Position numbers and translations under genes: made by a program. Below are positions 42 to 13,420 of a DNA stretch of 64,000 nucleotides, one piece after another (position 1 is the first letter of the stretch; each line of letters starts with the position of its first letter). This DNA comes from Escherichia coli (GTDB lineage: Bacteria > Pseudomonadota > Gammaproteobacteria > Enterobacterales > Enterobacteriaceae): the NCBI RefSeq assembly GCF_024700885.2, contig NZ_CP117016.1; one strand, written 5' to 3'. The notes under the pieces were generated by a model. The model made no database searches, was not told where the DNA came from, and worked only from the letters and a program-made list of their open reading frames with translations.

Positions 42-1433
42 TCATTTCAACAACATCTCCAAAAACCGTTGCTCATCTTCAAGGCAGCGTAAATCCAGCC
101 ACAATCGTCCGTCATAAATACGACCAATCACCGGCACTGGCAATTCACGCCAGCGGGCGGCTAATGACTCAAGGTGGCTACCGCGTCCATCATGGGGTGT
201 AAACGTTAATGCCGCACTCGGCAGGCGATCAACCGGCAGCGAACCACTGCCAATCTGCGAAAGACATGGCATAACCTGTACCGCAAACTCCGCGCCGTAA
301 TGTGTGGCAAGGGGGGCCTGTAAACGTTGTGCCTGGATTTGAATGACCTCTGCGCTGCGGGTAAGCAGACGCAGGGTCGGTAATTTTTCACTCAGCGCCT
401 CAGGGTGTAAATAAAGACGCAGCGTGGCTTCCAGCGCCGCGAGGGTCATTTTATCCGCGCGTAATGCACGCTTCAGTGGATGGCTTTGCAGGCGGGCGAT
501 CATCTCTTTTTTACCAACAATAATTCCAGCCTGCGGCCCGCCTAACAACTTGTCGCCGGAGAAGCTCACCAGACTGACGCCCGCCGCAATCAACTCCTGC
601 GGCATTGGCTCTTTCGGCAAACCGAACTGGCTAAGATCGACCAGCGAGCCACTGCCTAAATCAGTCACTACGGGAACATCCAGCTCTTTGCCGAGCGCCA
701 CCAGTTCCGCTTCATCTATCGCTTTGGTGAATCCCTGAATGCTGTAGTTACTGGTGTGTACTTTCATCAACAGCGCGGTATTTTCATTCACCGCCTGACG
801 ATAATCATTAGCGTGCGTGCGGTTGGTGGTCCCCACTTCGTGTAGGGTGCAGCCTGCCTGACGCATGACATCAGGAATACGAAACGCGCCGCCAATCTCC
901 ACCAGTTCGCCGCGAGAAACCACCACCTCTTTCCCGCTGGCAGTGGCCGCCAACATCAATAACACCGCCGCCGCATTGTTATTAACGATACAGGCATCTT
1001 CCGCTCCCGTAATGCGGCACAGCAGCTGCGCCAGCGCCCGATCGCGATGTCCGCGTCCGGCGTCGTCCAGATCGTACTCGAGGGTCACTGGCGAACGCAT
1101 AGCCTGCGCAACGGCTTCCACCGCGGCTTCTGCCTGTAAAGCTCGCCCAAGATTGGTATGCAGCACGGTTCCCGTCAGGTTGATCACCGGACGCAGCGCG
1201 CTCTGCGCCTCCTTCGTCAGTCGGGCATCGACTTCTTGCGCCCAGTTTTCACACCATGCGGGCAGCGTCTGGCTGTCACGAATCACTTCTCGCGCTTCGT
1301 CAAGCATCTGACGCAGCAATTCCACTACGCGGGTGTGGCCATAAGTATCACGCAAAGAAAGGAAGGAGCTATCGCGCAATAAGCGATCAATAGCCGGAAG
1401 TTGACTATAGAGGGAACGCGTTTCGGTTGTCAT
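42..1433 (-). CDS. selA: L-seryl-tRNA(Sec) selenium transferase
   Basis: 463-aa ORF, N-terminus [19 protein letters not shown] matches recalled SelA; full length; gene order selA-yibF-rhsA. Confidence 0.93.
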
Positions 1434-1530
1434 AGGAAACCTGGCTGATCAAGGCCCTCTCACACGGAGAAGGGCGTTTAACATAACCACGGATTGTAAC
1501 GTGAGATGGGTCAGGAGGACATATCGCGCA

Positions 1531-2139
1531 TCAAGCCTTTGGCGGTTCGGTGCGAGCAAAACTTTCGCGGCTAAACAGGTTTTCGACCAGTTTGACTAAG
1601 TGTGGGCGGTCGACACACCAGCCTGGCGCAACGCGGCGGAAATTGAGATATCCGACGGCACAGGCAATGGCGATAGTCGCCAGATTGACCGTATCGGTTT
1701 TGAGCGTGCCATCGACCAGATATCCTTCCAGCACATCCAGACTGCGGTTGATTTTCTCCCGCTGGCGTAACAATTCATCTTCAGACTGCTGCGCCGCCGG
1801 ACGCGCCTGTTCACGCACCGATACCAGCCCGGCATCCATAATGCCATCCGCCAGCGCCTCAATTTTGCGCACCCGCAACGACTCCAGCGGATCGCGCGGC
1901 AACATCGCCGGAGCGACATTCATTAATTCAATATATTCAGCGATGATCGGCGAATCAAACCAACATTCGCCCTCTTCGGTCACCAGCACCGGCACTTTCC
2001 CTAACGGGTTAAATTGCGCCACGCCGTTGTCCGCGTTATAGGGCAGTTCATTAATAAATTCGAAAGTTATGCCCTTTTCTAACAACAGAATAGAAAGTTT
2101 GCGTACAAACGGGCTGGTGTAGCTACCGACGAGTTTCAT
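1531..2139 (-). CDS. yibF: glutathione S-transferase-like protein
   Basis: 202-aa ORF with GST-like N-terminus ([14 protein letters not shown]); position between selA and rhsA. Confidence 0.88.
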
Positions 2140-2367
2140 GCCGAGTCCTTTGTGCGAGGAAAAATATCAGTATGGCCTGGTGATGGGAAAAAGGGCAGAA
2201 AATGTTGATGGTTTGTTACTTCCCAATAAATCACATATTTATCATGGTGATATAAATATTTTCCTAATTGTTCTTATCTGACAGATATCTCACTTAAGGC
2301 TTTCTTATAAATCTGTAGGGTTTCGCCTGTCAGCAGACAAATAACCCGATAAAACAAGGATGAGCAG

Positions 2368-5300
2368 ATGAGCGGAAAACCGGCGGCGCGTCAGGGCGAC
2401 ATGACGCAGTATGGCGGTAGCATTGTTCAGGGTTCAGCCGGGGTACGTATTGGTGCCCCCACCGGCGTGGCCTGTTCGGTGTGCCCCGGCGGGGTGACGT
2501 CCGGCCATCCGGTCAATCCGCTGCTCGGTGCGAAGGTCCTTCCCGGCGAAACCGACCTTGCCCTGCCCGGCCCGCTGCCGTTCATCCTCTCCCGCACCTA
2601 CAGCAGTTACCGGACAAAAACGCCCGCGCCGGTGGGGAGCCTCGGCCCCGGCTGGAAAATGCCCGCGGATATCCGCTTACAGCTGCGCGATAACACACTG
2701 ATACTCAGTGATAACGGCGGCAGGAGCCTGTATTTTGAGCACCTGTTTCCCGGTGAGGACGGTTACAGCCGCAGCGAGTCACTCTGGCTGGTGCGCGGCG
2801 GCGTGGCGAAACTGGATGAAGGTCACCGGCTGGCCGCACTCTGGCAGGCACTGCCGGAAGAGCTTCGCCTGAGTCCGCATCGTTATCTGGCGACGAACAG
2901 TCCGCAGGGGCCGTGGTGGGTACTCGGCTGGTGTGAGCAGGTGCCGGAGGCGGATGAGGTGCTGCCCGCGCCGCTGCCGCCGTACCGGGTACTGACCGGG
3001 CTGGTGGACCGCTTCGGGCGCACACAGACGTTTCACCGTGAGGCTGGCGGCGAAATCACCGGCGTGACGGATGGCGCAGGCCGTCACTTCCGGCTGGTAC
3101 TGACCACGCAGGCGCAGCGGGCAGAAGAAGCCCGGCAGCAGGCCATTTCCGGCGGGACGGAACCGTCCGCTTTTCCTGATACCCTGCCGGGTTACACCGA
3201 ATATGGCCGGGACAACGGCATCCGTCTGTCTGCCGTGTGGCTGACACACGACCCGGAATATCCGGACAACCTGCCAGCCGCGCCGCTGGTACGCTATGGC
3301 TGGACGCCGCGTGGCGAACTGGCGGCGGTGTATGACCGCAGCAATACACAGGTGCGCAGCTTTACTTACGATGATAAATACCGGGGCCGGATGGTGGCGC
3401 ACCGTCACACGGGCCGACCGGAAATCCGTTACCGTTACGACAGTGACGGGCGGGTGACAGAACAGCTAAACCCGGCGGGCTTAAGCTACACGTATCAGTA
3501 TGAGAAAGACCGCATCACCATCACCGACAGCCTGGACCGCCGTGAAGTCCTGCACACGCAGGGCGAAGGCGGGCTGAAGCGGGTGGTGAAAAAGGAACAC
3601 GCGGACGGCAGCGTCATGCAGAGTCAGTTTGACGCGGTGGGCAGGCTTAAGGCACAGACGGATGCCGCAGGCCGGACGACTGAGTACAGCCCGGATGTGG
3701 TGACGGGACTCATCACGCGCATCACCACACCGGATGGCAGGGCATCGGCATTTTACTATAACCACCACAACCAGTTAACGTCAGCCACCGGGACTGACGG
3801 GCTGGAGTTGCGCCGGGAATATGATGAATCCGGCCGTCTGATTCAGGAAACCGCACACAACGGCGATATCACCCGCTACCGTTATGATAATCCACACAGT
3901 GACTTACCCTGCGCAACGGAAGATGCCACCGGCAGCCGGAAAACCATGACATGGAGCCGTTACGGTCAGTTGCTGACCGTCACTGACTGTTCCGGTTATG
4001 TAACCCGTTATGACCATGACCGTTTTGGTCAGGTGACGGCGGTGCACCGCGAGGAAGGGCTGAGTCAGTACCGCGCATACGACAGCCGTGGACAGTTAAT
4101 TGCGGTGAAAGACACGCAGGGCCATGAAACGCGGTATGAATACAACGCCGCCGGTGACCTGACCGCCGTCATTGCCCCGGACGGCAGCAGAAACGGGACA
4201 CAGTACGATGCGTGGGGAAAGGCCATCCGTACCACGCAGGGCGGTCTGACGCGCAGTATGGAATACGATGCTGCCGGACGGGTCATCCGCCTGACCAGTG
4301 AAAACGGCAGCCACACCACCTTCCGTTACGATGTACTTGACCGGCTGATACAGGAAACCGGCTTTGACGGCCGCACACAGCGTTATCACCACGACCTGAC
4401 CGGCAAACTTATCCGCAGCGAGGATGAGGGGCTGGTCACCCACTGGCACTATGACGAAGCAGACCGCATCACGCACCGCACCGTGAAGGGTGAACCGGCA
4501 GAGCAGTGGCAGTATGATGAACGCGGCTGGCTGACACAAATCAGCCATCTCAGCGAAGGCCACCGGGTGACGGTGCATTACGGGTATGATGAGAAAGGCC
4601 GCCTGACCGGTGAGCGCCAGACGGTGCATCACCCGCAGACGGAAGCACTGCTCTGGCAGCATGAAACCAGACACGCTTACAACGCGCAGGGACTGGCGAA
4701 CCGCTGTATACCGGACAGCCTGCCCGCCGTGGAATGGCTGACTTACGGCAGCGGCTGGCTGGCAGGCATGAAACTCGGCGACACACCGCTGGTGGAGTAT
4801 ACCCGCGACCGCCTGCACCGGGAAACGCTGCGCAGCTTCGGCCGTTATGAACTCACCACCGCTTATACCTCTGCCGGGCAGTTACAGAGCCAGCACCTGA
4901 ACAGCCTGCAGTATGACCGCGATTACACCTGGAACGACAACGGCGAACTCATCCGCATCAGCAGCCCGCGACAGACCCGGAGTTACAGCTACAGCGACTC
5001 CGGCAGGCTGACCGGCGTCCACACCACCACCTCAAATCTGGATATCCGCATCCCGTATGCCACGGACCCGGCAGGCAACCGCCTGCCCGACCCGGAGCTG
5101 CACCCGGACATCACCCTCAGCATGTGGCCGGATAACCGTATCGCCCGTGACGCGCACTATCTTTACCGGTATGACCGTCACGGCAGACTGACGGAGAAAA
5201 CCGACCTCATCCCGGAAGGGGTTATCCGCACGGACGATGAGCGGACTCACCAGTACCATTACGACAGTCAGCACCGGCTGGTGCACTACACGCGGACACA

Positions 5301-6555
5301 ATATGCAGAGCCGCTGGTCGAAAGTCGCTATCTTTACGACCCGCTGGGCCGCAGGGTGGCAAAACGGGTATGGCGGCGTGAACGGGACCTGACGGGCTGG
5401 ATGTCGCTGTCACGGAAACCGGAAGTGACCTGGTACGGCTGGGACGGCGACCGGCTGACCACGATACAGAACGACAGAACCCGCATCCAGACGGTTTATC
5501 AGCCGGGGAGCTTCACGCCACTCATCAGAGTTGAAACCGCCACCGGTGAGCTGGCGAAAACGCAGCGCCGCAGCCTGGCGGATGCGCTTCAGCAGTCCGG
5601 CGGCGAAGACGGTGGCAGTGTGGTGTTCCCGCCGGTGCTGGTGCAGATGCTCGACCGGCTGGAAAGTGAAATCCTGGCTGACCGGGTGAGTGAGGAAAGC
5701 CGCCGCTGGCTGGCATCGTGCGGCCTGACGGTGGAGCAGATACAAAACCAGATGGACCCGGTGTACACGCCGGCGCGAAAAATCCACCTGTACCACTGCG
5801 ACCATCGCGGCCTGCCGCTGGCGCTTGTCAGCACGGAAGGGGCAACAGAATGGTGCGCAGAATACGATGAATGGGGCAACCTGCTGAATGAAGAGAACCC
5901 GCACCAGCTGCAGCAGCTCATCCGCCTGCCGGGTCAGCAGTATGATGAGGAGTCAGGCCTGTATTACAACCGCCACCGCTATTATGACCCGCTGCAGGGG
6001 CGGTATATCACTCAGGATCCGATTGGGCTGAAGGGGGGATGGAATTTTTATCAGTATCCGTTAAATCCGGTTCAGTATATAGATTCAATGGGACTGGCAT
6101 CTAAATATGGACACTTAAATAATGGCGGATATGGAGCGAGACCCAACAAACCGCCTACGCCCGATCCAAGTAAGTTGCCAGACATAGCGAAACAATTAAG
6201 ACTGCCATATCCTATTGACCAGGCCAGTAGTGCGCCTAATGTTTTCAAAACATTCTTCAGAGCATTAAGTCCTTACGATTACACACTGTATTGCAGGAAG
6301 TGGGTAAAACCCAATCTGACTTGTACGCCGCAGGATGATCCCCAGTATCCAGGGATGGAGACAAAGACAGCAAGTGATTACCTGCCACAGACAACTTGGC
6401 CAACAACTCAATTACCACCAGGATATACTTGTGCAGAACCCTATTTATTCCCAGACATTAATAAACCCGATGGGCCAGCAACAGCAGGGATAGATGATTT
6501 GGGTGAAATTTTAGCTAAAATGAAACAGAGAACATCGAGAGGAATAAGAAAATGA
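2368..6555 (+). CDS. rhsA: Rhs polymorphic toxin: PAAR-like N-terminus, YD-repeat core, variable C-terminal toxin tip
   Basis: 1395-aa ORF; N-terminal [17 protein letters not shown] (PAAR-like); many YD/RYxYD repeats; core ends with the DPIGL motif near nt 6016-6030, followed by an AT-rich ~175-codon tip of unrecognised family. Confidence 0.93.
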
Positions 6556-7121
6556 AAAGAGCTTTGTTCTTTTTGCTGATGATATTCGTTAGTTTTGGTG
6601 TTATAGCTAATTGCGAAACACAAGCTAAAGATCAAGATTGCTTTACCATTTTCACTAAGGGTACTATTTTTTCCGCGTTTCCTGTCTTAAATAATAAAAC
6701 CATGTGGAGATGGTATCAGAATGAGGACATAGGTGAGTATTATTGGCAAACAGAGCTTGGTATATGTAAAAATAACAAATTCACACCAAGCGGGGCGAGA
6801 CTCTTAATTCTCGTCGGATCACTACGCCTTAATGAAAATCATGCAACCAAAGGAACGTTGCAGGAGTTGCTAAATACAGCAGAAAAAACGGCGTTTCTCG
6901 GCGATCGGTTTAGAAGTTATATAAGAGCGGGTATCTATCAAAAAAAGAGCAGTGATCCAGCTCAGTTGTTGGCAGTCCTTGATAATTCAATCATGGTTAA
7001 ATATTTTAAAGATGAGAAGCCAACTTATGCTCGAATGACAGCACATCTCCCGAACAAAGATGAGTCTTACGAATGTTTAACAAAAGTACAGCATGAACTG
7101 CTTCGTAGTGAAGAAAAATAA
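6552..7121 (+). CDS. putative cognate Rhs immunity protein, secreted (N-terminal signal peptide)
   Basis: start codon overlaps the rhsA stop (ATGA at 6552-6555); GAGG RBS about 10 nt upstream; N-terminus [21 protein letters not shown] is signal-peptide-like; AT-rich like the rhsA tip. Confidence 0.6.
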
Positions 7122-7289
7122 AATCTCTTCCTGAGAAAATAAATTAACTATTCGAAAAAATATGTTCTTAATGGGTATCCAGGAACACCAGAAGGTCGAT
7201 TTGGAAAAATGGATTCCGATGGTAAGAATATCATATATTCTGAATGTAATGTTTTACCCACAACTTTTGAGATTCGATAGGTGTAGAGC

Positions 7290-7637
7290 ATGAGAAACTC
7301 ACTAATATTACTTATTATGATATTGTTTACAATATCACACTCAGTATTTGGAAAAGAAAATTCAGCGGAAATTTTAGTAAATAGTCGTGAAATGGCTTTG
7401 GAATTATCATATGTTTATATTAAATATATATACGGGAAAGAAAAAGCAGAATTTCAGAAACCATATAGTATTACAGATGACAATAATTGTTGGAAAATCG
7501 AGGGAAAACAACCGAAGACGTTAGGAGGAAATTTTACAATACTAATAGCGAAAAAAGATGGGCAAGCGTTGGATGTAATACACAAAATAATCCACTGTTC
7601 AGACGATTCAAATATTTTACCAAGGTGTGTTTCGTAA
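7290..7637 (+). CDS. small secreted hypothetical protein, possible orphan immunity protein
   Basis: 115-aa ORF with signal-peptide-like N-terminus MRNSLILLIMILFTISHSVFG; has a frameshifted paralog at 9240-9507; sits in the Rhs-associated AT-rich region. Confidence 0.5.
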   Translation: MRNSLILLIMILFTISHSVFGKENSAEILVNSREMALELSYVYIKYIYGKEKAEFQKPYSITDDNNCWKIEGKQPKTLGGNFTILIAKKDGQALDVIHKIIHCSDDSNILPRCVS

Positions 7638-7839
7638 CTATTTTGTGTACAATATGACTCTACATATCGACGAAAAAACCACTTGATTTGACAGGAACAC
7701 ATTCAAAAAAATTTCTTTTTCATTTCAGGAGCGATTTTCATCTGTTACTTGAAGTATCTGTGAGATTAAGTGACTCCCCCTAACGTCGTACTAAATAGTA
7801 ATTACTGGCCATACCGGGAGCAGTATTCGGCGCTTCCCA

Positions 7840-8080
7840 CATGCAGCAGAATAACCGCATCAGCGAAGATGTATTGTATTTTTACTATCACAATGTGTAC
7901 GGACGGTTTATGGAAAAGAATGAACATTAGATACGCGATGCGGCGGCAGGTTACACGGTTATCACTACGATAGCCAATACTGGCTGGTGCATTACCGCCG
8001 TGAACAATAGGACGCCGTACTGCTGGAAATTTCTTACCTTTATGACTCCCCGCGCCGCCGTATTGGGAAACGGGAAGCAA
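7840..8080 (+). pseudogene. decayed internal fragment of an Rhs core
   Basis: aligns by eye to rhsA nt ~5130-5370 (e.g. relic GYHYDSQYWLVHY and YLYDSPRRRIGKR vs rhs[14 protein letters not shown] and [13 protein letters not shown]); interrupted by stop codons; GC-rich patch inside an AT-rich region. Confidence 0.6.
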
Positions 8081-8654
8081 TCAAGATGAGGCTGATATAA
8101 TGTGCGGAATGCCTGAGTATTTTTAGAATAGGGGGGTAATATGTTTGATAGAATATATCTTGGTGATCGAGCAATAAAAAATTGAATTTGATTTATGGAG
8201 TAAACAAATTAGAATTCAGGTTAATTTAATCTCAAGGATAGCCTATGGTACAACAGAATGGAATTTTTATGATAATGAAGACTTAGAAGATGGTTATTTG
8301 GTATTTTCAGATGTTAGTTTCTTCAATATAACTCCTAATGGCTCTATTCCAGATGATTATATAATTTCAATAATTACAGATAATGTCAATGTTGAATATT
8401 TTGAATCAACTATAGTTGCTGTTGGTCAAATTCGAAACACAAATGTTGGTGACATTGATAATATTGGTGAATGTCAAATTTTCATCAGGTATAAAGACAG
8501 CTGGATTGAGAATAAACTCAAAGAAAAAATAATTGAATAACCATGTTATGTATAGACATTTTAGATGGAACGAACCAGAGGAAGGCATGCCTCCGACTTG
8601 GGTTATATGGGCACGGAGTTTTAGTGTAGTGAACTCAACGACGCAAACCGAATA

Positions 8655-8720
8655 ACCTGCCGCTGGCGCTTATCAGCACGTAAGGGACAACAGCGTAGTA
8701 CGTAGAATAATCCTACCCAC
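8655..8720 (+). pseudogene. short decayed relic of the Rhs core 3' end
   Basis: cctgccgctggcgcttatcagcacg is near-identical to rhsA 5811-5835 and to the yibJ copy at ~10669-10693; similarity decays downstream and is interrupted by stops. Confidence 0.5.
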
Positions 8721-8792
8721 GTAGTATGGACACAGGCCTAAGCGAGGTTCTGGTTTTCAAATTTTTCGGGAGTTAGATGATTGGAGGAACAG

Positions 8793-9158
8793 ATGATAAG
8801 AATCGCATTTTTAATAACCAATAAATTTCTTGAGATAGATAGTACCACTCTTGCTGGATATGATTTTAGCGGGATGAATCTACATCGTGCCACCCTCAAT
8901 GGTTATTGTCTTGATGGGGCGAAATTTGAAAAAACTCATTTAAGAAATGTAATGATTCAACATACATCAACTAGAAATGCTGTCTTTCGCAATGCGGCTC
9001 TGATGAATGCTATTCTGAATAACTCAGATTTCACTGGAAGTGATTGTAGTAATTCAAGGTCAATAGGTGAAAATTTTAAAGCAATAGATAATCATGGGAA
9101 AGATATAATAAATGGAAAAGGATTGCCTAATGTTTGCAAAATACATGACAACGTATAA
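8793..9158 (+). CDS. pentapeptide-repeat protein, hypothetical
   Basis: ORF with GGAGG RBS 5 nt upstream of ATG 8793 (the track ORF begins at an in-frame TTG at 8781); sequence shows pentapeptide-like periodicity (GMNLHRATLNGYCLDGAKFEKTHLRNV...AVFRNAALMNAILNNSDFTGSD). Confidence 0.5.
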   Translation: MIRIAFLITNKFLEIDSTTLAGYDFSGMNLHRATLNGYCLDGAKFEKTHLRNVMIQHTSTRNAVFRNAALMNAILNNSDFTGSDCSNSRSIGENFKAIDNHGKDIINGKGLPNVCKIHDNV

Positions 9159-9239
9159 GAAAATATTATTCAGAACCTATGTGATTGTATCTTTATTTTT
9201 ACATACAACACATGGGCGCAGTGTAATAATATTATTATA

Positions 9240-9507
9240 ATGCGCAAGTATGAAAGTGAGGGGAAATACACCGTTAGAAATTTGGTCAAAAATAAAGCTA
9301 TAGCATTGGAATTAGCTGAGATGTATGTTAAAAATCGTTATGGACATGATGCCGAAGAAGAAAAAAAAACCATACAAAATCATGGAATTACCAACAAGTT
9401 GGATTGTTGAAGGCACCATTGAATCAGACCAAATTGCTGGTAGGGTTTTTATTATAGAAATAGGCAAAAATGACGGGAGAATTCTAAATTTTGGCCACGG
9501 AAAATAA
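9240..9507 (+). pseudogene. frameshifted paralog of the 7290-7637 gene, interrupted in an A9 homopolymer
   Basis: frame A (9240-9410, MRKYESEGKYTVRNLVKNKAIALELAEMYVKNRYGHDAEEEKK) and frame B (9325-9507, ...PYKIMELPTSWIVEGTIESDQIAGRVFIIEIGKNDGRILNFGHGK) together align with the 7290 protein (SREMALELSYVYIKYIYGKEKAEFQKPYSITDDNNCWKIEG...ILIAKKDGQALDVIHKI); the frames meet at the A9 run 9361-9369; losing one A restores one ORF. Confidence 0.6.
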
Positions 9508-9611
9508 GTATGTAAGGATAAACAAACATCGTGTGTGCTGATGGCAGAGTAGGTGGAGGACTCCAGACAGTCAAACGATAGAAAAAGATAGTCTTTATGG
9601 AGGTTCCTGCA

Positions 9612-10454
9612 ATGTCGAATACATACCAGAAAAGAAAGGCAAGTAAAGAGTATGGTTTATACAATCAATGTAAGAAACTAAATGATGATGAATTATTTCG
9701 CTTACTTGATAATCGCAATTCATTGAAAAGGATTTCATCTGCCAGAGTATTGCAGCTAAGAGGTGGGCAAGACGCTGTTAGATTGGCAATTGAATTCTGC
9801 GCTGACAAAAATTATATCCGTAGAGATATAGGAGCATTTATACTCGGGCAAATAAAAGTTTGCAAAAAATGCGAAGATAGCGTTTTTAATATTTTAAAAA
9901 AGATGGCACTGAATGATAAAAGTGCTTGCGTTCGAGCTACAGCAATCGAGTCAACTGCTCAGCGATGCAAGAAAAACCCAATTTATTCACCTAAAATAGT
10001 AGAACAATCTCAAATTACTGCTTTTGATAAATCGGCTAATGTCAGACGTGCTACGGCATTTGCTATTTCTGTTATCAATGATAAAGAAACAATTCCACTA
10101 TTGATTAATCTGTTAAAAGATCCAAATGGAGATGTCAGAAACTGGGCCGCATTTGCAATAAATATCAATAAATATGATAATAGTGATATTAGGGATTATT
10201 TTGTGGAGATGCTTCAGGATAAAAATGAGGAAGTCCGTATTGAAGCAATAATCGGACTTTCCTACAGAAAAGATAAAAGGGTTTTATCTGTTTTATGCGA
10301 TGAGTTAAAAAAAAATACTGTTTATGATGATATCATTGAAGCTGCGGGTGAATTAGGTGATAAAACGCTACTTCCTGTTTTAGATACTATGTTGTACAAG
10401 TTTGATGACAATGAAATTATAACTTCCGTTATTGATAAGCTGAAGCGTTCATAG
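9612..10454 (+). CDS. yibA: HEAT-repeat protein
   Basis: N-terminus MSNTYQKRKASKEYGLYNQ at the internal ATG 9612 matches recalled YibA; repeated D/N-x-x-VR-x-x-A HEAT-like units; lies between Rhs modules. Confidence 0.8.
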   Translation: MSNTYQKRKASKEYGLYNQCKKLNDDELFRLLDNRNSLKRISSARVLQLRGGQDAVRLAIEFCADKNYIRRDIGAFILGQIKVCKKCEDSVFNILKKMALNDKSACVRATAIESTAQRCKKNPIYSPKIVEQSQITAFDKSANVRRATAFAISVINDKETIPLLINLLKDPNGDVRNWAAFAININKYDNSDIRDYFVEMLQDKNEEVRIEAIIGLSYRKDKRVLSVLCDELKKNTVYDDIIEAAGELGDKTLLPVLDTMLYKFDDNEIITSVIDKLKRS

Positions 10455-10495
10455 CGTGAGTTGCCTATGCACAGTGAGGTATTCCCGCCGGCACG

Positions 10496-11305
10496 GTGCA
10501 GATGCTCGACCGGCTGGAAAGTGAAATCCTGGCTGACCGGGTGAGTGAGGAAAGCCGACGCTGGCTGGCATCGTGCGGCCTGACGGTGGCGCAGATGCAA
10601 AACCAGATGGACCCGGTGTACACGCCGGCGCGAAAAATCCACCTGTACCACTGCGACCATCGCGGCCTGCCGCTGGTGCTTATCAGCACGGAAGGGGCAA
10701 CAGAATGGTGCGCAGAATACGATGAGTGGGGCAACCTGCTGAATGAAGAGAACCCGCACCAGCTGCAGGGGCGGTATATCACTCAGGATCCGATTGGACT
10801 GAAGGGGGGATGGAATTTTTATCAGTATCCGTTGAATCCGATAACTGATATTGACCCGTTGGGATTAGCGACCTGTTTATACAGCATAACTTTAGGTATG
10901 CTTTCATGCGTTTCAGATACGCCAAGTGATGATAATTCTTATGGTGTGCTTACTATTTCAGTCGCCTCTGGTAATAATGGTAATAATATGCAATGTAAAA
11001 ATAATCCTGGTTGTACACACTTACAAAATAGAGGCCCAATACCTCCAGGGGTATGGAGCTGGAATGTTAATGGTCCTGGAGCAACTAATAGAAAACCTAA
11101 TGGTATACGTTTAGTACCGTCAGCAAATACAGAAACGTATAATCGTGATGGATTTTTAACACATAGTTGTTTAAACGCTTTTGGTCCATCTTTAGGACCT
11201 CGATTCTGTTCCGAGGGTTGTATAACTGGTTCATCTAATGACATGCAAAAATTAAATGAGCTAATATTTTCAGAGCCAGATAGCACATTAACAGTGACGG
11301 ACTAG
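10496..11305 (+). CDS. yibJ: orphan Rhs C-terminal fragment (3' core plus alternative toxin tip) with L,D-transpeptidase-like motif
   Basis: nt ~10472-10840 are near-identical to the rhsA 3' core (5616-6070) including [18 protein letters not shown]; the tip then diverges; tip contains H-S-x14-S-E-G-C-I-T (His codon 11162-11164, Cys codon 11219-11221); symbol is positional only. Confidence 0.7.
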
Positions 11306-11309
11306 AAAT

Positions 11310-11705
11310 ATGGCAAGGTTATTAACAATTGTGCTTTTTTTCTCTATTTCTGCGAATGCAGTTACTGTAAACCAATTTCAGAGAGAGTTGGATTTGGCAG
11401 ACAAGGCAATATTATGGGCACTAATATCAGCCAGTACCCAAGAGGGACGAAAAGCGTGTTCACTTAGCTATTTTTCATGTAAAGCCGCAGAGGCTGAACT
11501 CGGACTGGCATATATGGCTGCTAATGATAACAAGGCATTTCTCACATCCTTATCTAGAATAATGATGTACAAAATAGATGCTGGACTTTCCGAATCCTAT
11601 ACATGCTATTTATTAAGCAAGGGAAAGATCATAAGACCATATCTGAAGAATCTAAATCCACACCAACTTGTCGCTGATTGCATTGAAACTGTAAATAAAA
11701 GATAA
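11310..11705 (+). CDS. putative immunity protein for the orphan Rhs tip, secreted
   Basis: starts 4 nt after the yibJ stop; N-terminus MARLLTIVLFFSISANA is signal-peptide-like; AT-rich. Confidence 0.55.
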   Translation: MARLLTIVLFFSISANAVTVNQFQRELDLADKAILWALISASTQEGRKACSLSYFSCKAAEAELGLAYMAANDNKAFLTSLSRIMMYKIDAGLSESYTCYLLSKGKIIRPYLKNLNPHQLVADCIETVNKR

Positions 11706-12283
11706 AAATAAAAAAATCATTGATATAGATTCAGTTAATATTTGCAATGATAATAAAAATATAAATTGGAGAGTTAATAGTACTATTGTAGCCATTGATG
11801 ATTCTATAAAATGCATCGATGAATAATAACTTAATTATATTTAAAAATATATTAATGACTCACTCTCCAGGAGTTTTTTAACTTAGTGTTATAATGAATA
11901 CGATAATTAAAAGTGAAGAGAAAAATAGTTGTATACATATATTACATGAACCTACATTGTGATCTATAAATTAAATATTTTTAAATGTGACTGTCATCCT
12001 TCAGATAATAAAGCCATCATCGCAATAGATGGAAAAGCACTCCTGCTCTTTTTTGATTAGAGCCGTGGCAGAGGAACAACTCATATCATCATTGCGATCT
12101 CGACAATGTATGGTCTGATCCTTCGGCAGATCAAGACGGATAAAAAATCCAATGAGTTCACACTCATCCCGAACTTCTTAACATAATGGATATTAACGAA
12201 AAATCATCGCAGCCAATGAAGTAATATGCAAAAATAATTAGTCCTTACAGGGAGCAAAGTTCCATAATCTCCCCCTTCCCTAC

Positions 12284-13420
12284 TCAATGATCCAAATAAA
12301 GATAATGCATCCAACTGGTCATTCTCAGCAGCACCTTCCGCATCACCGAAACATGGCTGAAATGGTCGGAGTAAACTGCCACCTGGGCGTAGATGCCGTC
12401 GGGTAAGGCATCGATATCAGCGTTAGGGTCCAGTTCAATGGTTCCCAGCACACCGTCCGTGCCGGGCACGACCGTTAATGATTGCAATACCCCCTGCGCC
12501 TGATAAGAACCGCCTGGCACGACAGGTAAAATACTGGTCAGTTTGCCGTGGAACACCTGCCCAGGTAGCGCGTTAAACACCACTTCCGCATCATCGCCGG
12601 GTTTCAGACGTAACAGCGAGTTTTGCCGAAATTGGGCGACAATTTGCCGTTTTTGCTCGGGGATGAAAACCATCACCGGACGCAACGGCAAGGCAGCTGC
12701 GTATGTACCTGGGCGGATCAGTACCTGAGTAACGTAGCCATTGCTCGGCGCGCGAATGACAGTCTGCTCAAGGTTATATTTTGCTTCAGTAAGTTGCGCT
12801 CTTAAGCTCACAATCTGCGATTGCTCGCCGTTAACCATACTATCGAGCTGGCTCTGGATCTGCGCCTGCTCCGCCACCGAGCCTTTCACCAGCGCATCCT
12901 GCGCGAGGAAATTTTGCCGCGCATCGTCGATGTCACGTTCCGAGAACGGATTCACCGCCGCCTGGCTGCCTTTCAGATAACGTTGATAATTATTAAACAG
13001 ACGGTCGCGCTCCGCTGAAACCTGGGTGGTGTTGGCCTGCGCTTCAGTGAGCTGCGCGCGCAGCGTCTTTATATTATGCGTCGCCGTCATCAGGTCAGCC
13101 TGAAGTCTGTCAACTCGCGCCTGGTAACGAACCGGGTCGAGCTTAAAAAGCACCTCGCCCTTTTGAATAAGCTGATTATTCTTGTCAGTGACTTCAGTAA
13201 CAATTCCCGTCACCTGTGGCGTGATGGGGATCGCAATCACTGCCTTTTGCGCGGTAAAAGTGTAAGGGTGGTTGTAGTTCATCAACAAAATCAAACCACT
13301 CACCAGAAACACGCCTCCCAGCGCCGCCGTCGCCAGCGTCCACTGATTTACCGGAATGCGGAAGATTTTAAAGACCGCCCACGCCAGCGCCACGTAAGTT
13401 AAAACAATCAATAGATCCAT
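12284..13420 (-). CDS. yibH: HlyD-family membrane fusion-like protein
   Basis: 378-aa ORF with N-terminal TM segment and long coiled-coil region; position upstream of mtlA. Confidence 0.8.

Follow-up and report, generated by a model that had tools for sequence, protein, structure and literature searches.

The rhsA locus of the Escherichia coli DNA analysed here, a 64-kb stretch referred to as the window, raises the question of why a gene for a HEAT-repeat protein, yibA, stands between two Rhs modules. A first-pass annotation had proposed that the gene is an orphan immunity gene rather than an unrelated neighbor. Its placement of a HEAT-repeat yibA gene at 9612-10454 agrees with the open reading frame, the RefSeq CDS, the match to PDB entry 1OYZ and the Pfam HEAT_2 and HEAT matches, and the gene and its ribosome-binding site are located as follows:

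9612-10454, + strand: yibA, an intact 280-aa HEAT-repeat ORF, very probably of the Imm-HEAT kind that partners the Ntox34 Rhs tip and orphaned in this genome
9599-9603, + strand: Shine-Dalgarno sequence GGAGG, 8 nt 5' of the yibA ATG, read directly from the sequence

In the ORF listing, the ATG at 9612 opens 280 uninterrupted codons that close with the TAG ending at 10454. An alternative start at 9597, taken from the program-made ORF list, overlaps the Shine-Dalgarno sequence, and the 1OYZ chain begins MSNTYQ; for these two reasons, 9612 is the better start. K-12 and the other orphan contexts described below share the GGAGG element. Positions 6400-12300 of the window are 100% identical to E. 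coli MLI114 (NZ_CP117013.1), in which RefSeq annotates the same CDS as yibA, and the gene order of the segment is selA, yibF, rhsA ... yibH, yibI, mtlA. By phmmer, the window protein matches PDB 1oyz ('Hypothetical protein yibA') over residues 1-280 with an E value of 8.6e-175, and Pfam assigns HEAT_2 (5e-23) and HEAT (3.4e-16). The 1OYZ structure is a horseshoe with eight HEAT repeats (PMC3306375). Taken together, the Pfam and full-length 1OYZ matches give window YibA the all-alpha HEAT-repeat fold that characterizes Imm-HEAT proteins. Relative to K-12, the gene is 96.8% identical at the nucleotide level and the protein is 96% identical with 11 substitutions, both over the full length. No signal peptide is seen when the N-terminus of window YibA is read, which fits a toxin that acts in the cytoplasm. 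Unlike YibA, the putative RhsI, NTF2-2 and Imm57 proteins of the same locus have signal-like N-termini.

The features that surround yibA are:

2368-6555, + strand: main rhsA, 1395 aa (RefSeq 'RHS element core protein')
6093-9559: AT-rich block of 3.5 kb between the main rhsA core and yibA
6552-7121, + strand: 189-aa ORF, probably the immunity gene (RhsI) cognate to the main tip; its start overlaps the rhsA stop (6552 versus 6555)
7290-7637, + strand: orphan immunity-like gene of the Imm-NTF2-2 family (PF15631, E = 7.1e-18; RefSeq 'NTF2 fold immunity protein')
8181-8540, + strand: DUF6258 gene in the island (PF19772, E = 2.8e-19; RefSeq annotation)
8656-8709, + strand: Rhs core remnant of 54 nt in the island (blastn, 85-89% identity to K-12 yibJ and the rhsA core)
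8793-9158, + strand: pentapeptide-repeat pseudogene fragments (RefSeq pseudogenes; Pfam Pentapeptide, E = 6.6e-9, on ORF 8781-9155)
9130-9507, + strand: yhhH-type NTF2-fold immunity pseudogene (RefSeq 'NTF2 fold immunity protein, frameshifted'; tblastn with YhhH)
9560-9591, + strand: Ntox34 tip vestige, the last 32 nt of a K-12-type rhsA tip, with an internal TAG
10496-11305, + strand: orphan Rhs C-terminal module, in which a Tlde1 toxin tip is joined to a yibJ/yibS-like Rhs core fragment that carries an internal deletion
11310-11705, + strand: Imm57 immunity gene of the K-12 yibV type (PF15596, E = 6.9e-45), partner of the Tlde1 tip

The gene is therefore embedded between Rhs modules, as the first-pass annotation had it, with rhsA upstream and a Rhs core fragment with its tip downstream. 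Two of that annotation's descriptions are modified by these results. Its placement of yibA between an AT-rich island and the next module stands, but yibA itself belongs to the AT-rich block, with a GC content of 33.8%, near the 35.8% of the island and far from the 61.6% of the rhs core. The downstream piece, which had been called an orphan yibJ tip, does match K-12 yibJ in its 5' core, but the tip is of the Tlde1 type and corresponds to K-12 yibS/yibW.

On the upstream side, the main rhsA core is 96% identical to K-12 rhsA up to window position 6092, where the blastn match breaks. The C-terminal tip that follows (~6093-6552, ~150 aa) differs from the K-12 tip and has no match in a Pfam search. 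The 189-aa ORF at 6552-7121 likewise has no Pfam match, its N-terminus is signal- or lipoprotein-like, and its position makes it the probable immunity gene of the main RhsA tip. This tip and the adjacent ORF (6093-7121) suggest an uncharacterised envelope-acting toxin with a periplasmic immunity protein, and the same tip and island are also present at the rhsB locus of other strains (L006). Further along the island, window positions 9072-9619 are 89% identical to the RhsB-tip end, yhhH and yibA junction of strain 90-9280 (L004), which identifies the pseudogene at 9130-9507 as a frameshifted copy of yhhH, the gene found in the immunity position of the RhsB-type tip. The 54-nt Rhs core remnant lies just before the pentapeptide pseudogene and looks like the trace of an earlier displaced module.

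On the downstream side, the module at 10496-11305 contains Pfam RHS (1.2e-14) and Tlde1_dom (1e-7; L,D-transpeptidase-like) matches, and is annotated by RefSeq as an 'RHS domain-containing' pseudogene plus a 'tlde1 domain-containing protein'. In the window, a single unbroken 269-codon ORF spans the yibJ/yibS core fragment and the Tlde1 tip, which are pseudogenes in K-12. The Imm57 gene starts 4 nt after the Tlde1 ORF, and a longer version of it is marked as frameshifted by RefSeq. A Tox-LD-peptidase is paired with Imm57 in the compilation of Zhang et al. 2012 (PMC3482391).

The partner of YibA is indicated by the K-12 locus, where yibA starts 20 nt after the rhsA stop codon and the RhsA tip is a Pfam Ntox34 domain (PF15606, E = 1.3e-43). 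Ntox34 was tabulated by Zhang et al. 2012 (PMC3482391) as a Rhs-borne toxin with 'Imm-HEAT' immunity. In the account that Poole et al. 2011 give of Vlazny & Hill 1995, the C-terminal region of RhsA is stated to block recovery from stationary phase, and yibA, the ORF immediately downstream, is stated to have neutralised this inhibition (PMC3150448). The same neutralisation result is summarised by Jamet & Nassif 2015 (PMC4436062). A further precedent is Nte2, a PAAR-Rhs-Ntox34 effector of Neisseria cinerea that proves toxic when produced in the cytoplasm of E. coli and is counteracted by the adjacent gene (PMC8263058); the Ntox34 domain is called a predicted RNase in the same paper. The name yibA in PMC12945103, by contrast, is misspelt for YbiA, a NADAR protein, and has no bearing on this gene. 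The neutralisation of RhsA-tip toxicity was reported for the K-12 orthologue, and the window allele, which differs from it at 11 residues, could have shifted in specificity.

The first-pass annotation had proposed that yibA homologues be looked for immediately downstream of Rhs or CDI tips, and copies of the gene are indeed found behind an Rhs tip. Among 5,426 complete E. coli genomes, with a tip counted at a coverage of at least 80%, the following numbers were obtained:

Ntox34 tip (at least 80% covered): 1,760 of 5,426 genomes
Tip and yibA contiguous: 1,746 of 5,426 genomes
Full-length yibA: 2,948 of 5,426 genomes

Contiguous yibA thus accompanies 1,746 of the 1,760 tips, and the same arrangement recurs in Salmonella, Snodgrassella alvi and metagenomes. 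Approximately 1,200 genomes, or ~40% of the yibA carriers, have a full-length yibA without an Ntox34 tip. The Ntox34 toxin is almost never found without yibA and yibA is often found without the toxin, an asymmetry that is the prediction for an immunity gene.

Outside E. coli, the full-length YibA homologues (42-74% identity) make up a well-conserved family in which 33 columns are invariant. Those that lie directly after an Ntox34 tip, in Salmonella, Snodgrassella alvi and metagenomes, are of 43-74% identity. In Salmonella enterica (L007 and L008), the homologue follows an orphan Rhs-Ntox34 fragment after a 22-nt gap. Ntox34 is directly upstream of the homologue in Snodgrassella alvi WF3-3 (L020) and in metagenome contig L012, and it is frameshifted in metagenome contig L011. 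Wherever a recognisable toxin domain is directly upstream of a homologue, that domain is Ntox34. The location expected of an Imm-HEAT gene, directly downstream of an Ntox34 toxin, is accordingly seen for the family; in the window, only the 32-nt vestige is kept. Other homologues occur in Rhs arrays without a recognisable Ntox34 domain (L013 and L017). In the metagenome locus L013, two tandem YibA-like HEAT genes (4955-6879; 40% and 44% identity to YibA) follow a 1,423-aa Rhs protein, and Ntox34 was not detected in the available sequence of this locus. Three homologues of 42-51% identity stand alone among housekeeping genes (L009, L014 and L022), and because of these copies the YibA family may have, or may have gained, another role in some lineages. 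As a whole, YibA homologues do occur next to toxin genes and have no defined unrelated function, the opposite of what would speak against an immunity role.

Five further hits (L023 and L025-L028) were rejected as family members, with ~30-49% identity over part of the protein only; L023 adjoins a radical-SAM gene. In addition, two MAGs, labelled 'Flavobacterium psychrophilum' and 'Lachnospiraceae', include three short contigs (L015, L016 and L021) with 92-96% identity to E. coli yibA/rhs; these are almost certainly E. coli contamination of the MAG bins.

In contrast to K-12, the window lacks the toxin. In a blastn comparison with K-12, window positions 6093-9559 are window-specific DNA that replaces the 365-nt K-12 Ntox34 tip. 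Homology to K-12 resumes at window position 9560 (K-12 L002 position 5786), 32 nt before the rhsA stop, and extends across yibA to the core fragment of yibJ. The K-12 counterpart of the window from 10762 onward is yibS/yibW/yibV, and the K-12 yibJ tip and yibG are therefore deleted; in the comparison over 10496-11826, the start of yibS is deleted relative to K-12 as well. A tblastn search of the whole window with the K-12 Ntox34 tip finds 9 codons only, at 9562-9588. At the genome level, a chimeric query composed of the K-12 tip joined to 1,081 nt of the window island was searched by megablast against complete E. coli genomes. In the MLI114 chromosome, the single match to this query is the island and no second place for the tip was found; among the listed island-type genomes besides MLI114, the island is likewise the single match place in 58 of 59. 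No match to the Ntox34 tip was found on the plasmids of the complete E. coli collection. The tblastn search of the window and the megablast searches of the matching chromosome and of plasmids agree in that, at nucleotide-level sensitivity, at which a strongly diverged Ntox34 tip would be missed, the cognate toxin is absent from the genome.

Orphan copies of yibA were also found in other contexts. At the rhsA locus of strain 90-9280 (L004), an orphan yibA lies behind an RhsB-type tip and yhhH, and at the rhsB locus in L006 it lies behind a window-type island. K-12-type rhsB loci carry a 354-nt yibA fragment after yhhH, cut by the ISEc1/ISAs1-family element yhhI, and it is this fragment that accounts for the median of two yibA matches per genome. 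Two copies of it were located:

L003 6001-6351: yibA fragment at an rhsB locus, first ~350 nt of yibA
L005 8053-8403: yibA fragment at an rhsB locus, first ~350 nt of yibA

All orphan contexts examined share a common junction, which consists of the yhhH 3' end, 53 nt, the 32-nt tip vestige, the 20-nt leader and yibA. The vestige junction seen at window position 9560 is also present in L003, L004 and L006. The simplest reading of this common junction would be that one founding deletion occurred and was then passed among rhs loci by recombination.

The best surviving alternative is that yibA is a functionless relic, a former immunity gene that is no longer expressed or selected and awaits decay. 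The absence of the cognate Ntox34 toxin is what such a relic would show, and the IS-cut fragments at K-12-type rhsB loci demonstrate that copies of yibA do decay. Within the window, two genes immediately 5' of yibA, the pentapeptide and yhhH-type ones, have become pseudogenes, and because these two island neighbors are disrupted, the island array is decaying in part. A distinct promoter for yibA is also lacking: a sigma-70 scan of 6400-12300 gives 24 promoter-like sites, compared with 23.1 expected from shuffled sequence, and a terminator scan of the + strand over the same interval found none. With no convincing promoter just upstream, yibA would have to be expressed in this strain by read-through from rhsA or from weak AT-rich promoters. 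The gene itself fits a relic poorly. Its 280-codon ORF is intact in a region of 34% GC and its ribosome-binding site is preserved. The dN/dS ratio is 0.17 relative to K-12 and 0.19 relative to Salmonella, and none of the 11 substitutions relative to K-12 falls on the 33 family-invariant positions, a pattern of purifying selection on an intact gene. Moreover, the full-length toxin-less gene is kept in ~1,200 complete genomes, and every full-length yibA row that was sampled is annotated as an ordinary CDS. Based on the dN/dS ratio of ~0.17, the intact invariant residues and the GGAGG site, yibA looks maintained, and the relic explanation is considered improbable.

A second alternative, that YibA is an enzyme or housekeeping scaffold unrelated to Rhs, a 'putative lyase' or a deoxyhypusine hydroxylase (DOHH)-like protein, is far less probable still. 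It derives from the K-12 annotation 'putative lyase containing HEAT-repeat', from a weak match of window YibA to the Pfam PBS-lyase HEAT-like repeat (2.9e-6), from the modelling of DOHH on 1OYZ (PMC3306375) and from the presence of some homologues among housekeeping genes. The name 'lyase', however, stems only from the repeat model, with no assay behind it. DOHH requires four conserved His-Glu metal-binding motifs on the concave face; window YibA has 0 histidines, no family member has more than one HE dipeptide, and YibA is described in the DOHH paper itself as lacking active-site residues (PMC3306375). DOHH and the PBS-lyase HEAT-like proteins share the all-alpha HEAT-repeat horseshoe with YibA, but at ~16% identity and with the His-Glu metal sites absent from YibA, this is a resemblance of fold only, and a DOHH or lyase identity was rejected. 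The near-absolute linkage to Ntox34 and an AT-rich composition that matches horizontally exchanged rhs tips also argue against an unrelated enzyme. Finally, the idea that yibA protects against a toxin of its own locus, the new RhsA tip or the Tlde1 tip, rather than Ntox34 is scarcely credible: yibA does lie between these two toxin modules and HEAT scaffolds can in principle evolve new partners, but each tip has a gene of its own in the immunity position (the 189-aa ORF and Imm57), these two proteins have signal-like N-termini and YibA has none, and the same yibA cassette is found behind different tips (RhsB-type in L004 and Ntox34 in K-12).

The reading that yibA is an Ntox34 immunity gene orphaned by tip replacement, and is likely protective against Ntox34-armed neighbors, is thus held with considerable confidence. 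The Ntox34 linkage, the disappearance of the toxin from the window and the published neutralisation in K-12 all favor the first-pass proposal of an orphan immunity gene over that of an unrelated neighbor. YibA would be the cytoplasmic HEAT-repeat immunity protein (Imm-HEAT) of Ntox34, the domain with which RhsA ends in K-12 and numerous other strains. By analogy with other Rhs and CDI immunity proteins, the HEAT-repeat horseshoe most likely binds Ntox34 directly, one-to-one, and blocks the toxin. In the window strain, rhsA has exchanged its Ntox34 tip for another, which has a probable immunity gene of its own, and older immunity genes remain stacked downstream; yibA is one of these, intact and toxin-less, and is still preceded by the last 32 nt of the missing tip. 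The likely present role of the window allele would be protection against Ntox34-armed E. coli neighbors.

A more speculative extension, which we regard as possible and put at somewhat below an even chance, is that the toxin-less gene is actively retained and serves by itself as a defence against Ntox34-armed E. coli. It would have arisen by a single founding deletion that spread between rhsA and rhsB loci and persists in ~1/5 of complete E. coli genomes. Under this extension, the window allele, with its 11 substitutions and a dS of ~0.1 from K-12, could represent a lineage that is older or has shifted in specificity, and the stand-alone homologues in other genera could be domesticated.

Comparison with known systems places the locus among familiar arrangements. 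The K-12 RhsA-CT (Ntox34)/YibA pair resembles the window in the gene, the 20-nt leader, the GGAGG element and the location between yibF and yibH. In contrast to K-12, the window has lost all but the last 32 nt of the tip, 3 kb of tip and immunity DNA separates rhsA from yibA, and YibA carries the 11 amino-acid substitutions. Orphan rhs-CT/rhsI modules that arise by C-terminal displacement, as treated in Poole et al. 2011 (PMC3150448) and in Koskiniemi et al. 2014 as relayed in PMC4436062, are alike in that former tips and immunity genes lie downstream of a full-length rhs gene, and Tlde1/Imm57 (10496-11705) is a textbook case of such a module. Window yibA differs from such modules in that its toxin half is deleted and not merely detached, which makes it an immunity-only orphan. 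The closest likeness outside the species is in Salmonella enterica (L007), where a 74%-identical YibA homologue belongs to an array of Rhs fragments and immunity-type genes (Imm-NTF2-2), as in the window; L007 differs in that it retains the toxin half.

The immunity function of yibA was published in 1995 and 2012, and orphan immunity in rhs arrays is likewise a known phenomenon; only the counts of orphan versus cognate yibA and the shared junction are small additions made here. Beyond correct annotation, the yibA finding matters little and opens no new question. Database labels for YibA still read 'putative lyase' or 'HEAT repeat domain-containing protein', and the protein is better described as the probable immunity partner of the Ntox34 Rhs tip. 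The locus itself is a clean worked example of rhs evolution, in which the old immunity gene outlasts the replacement of its tip, and the asymmetry between toxin and immunity gene is useful for the interpretation of strain competition in E. coli and for annotation pipelines.
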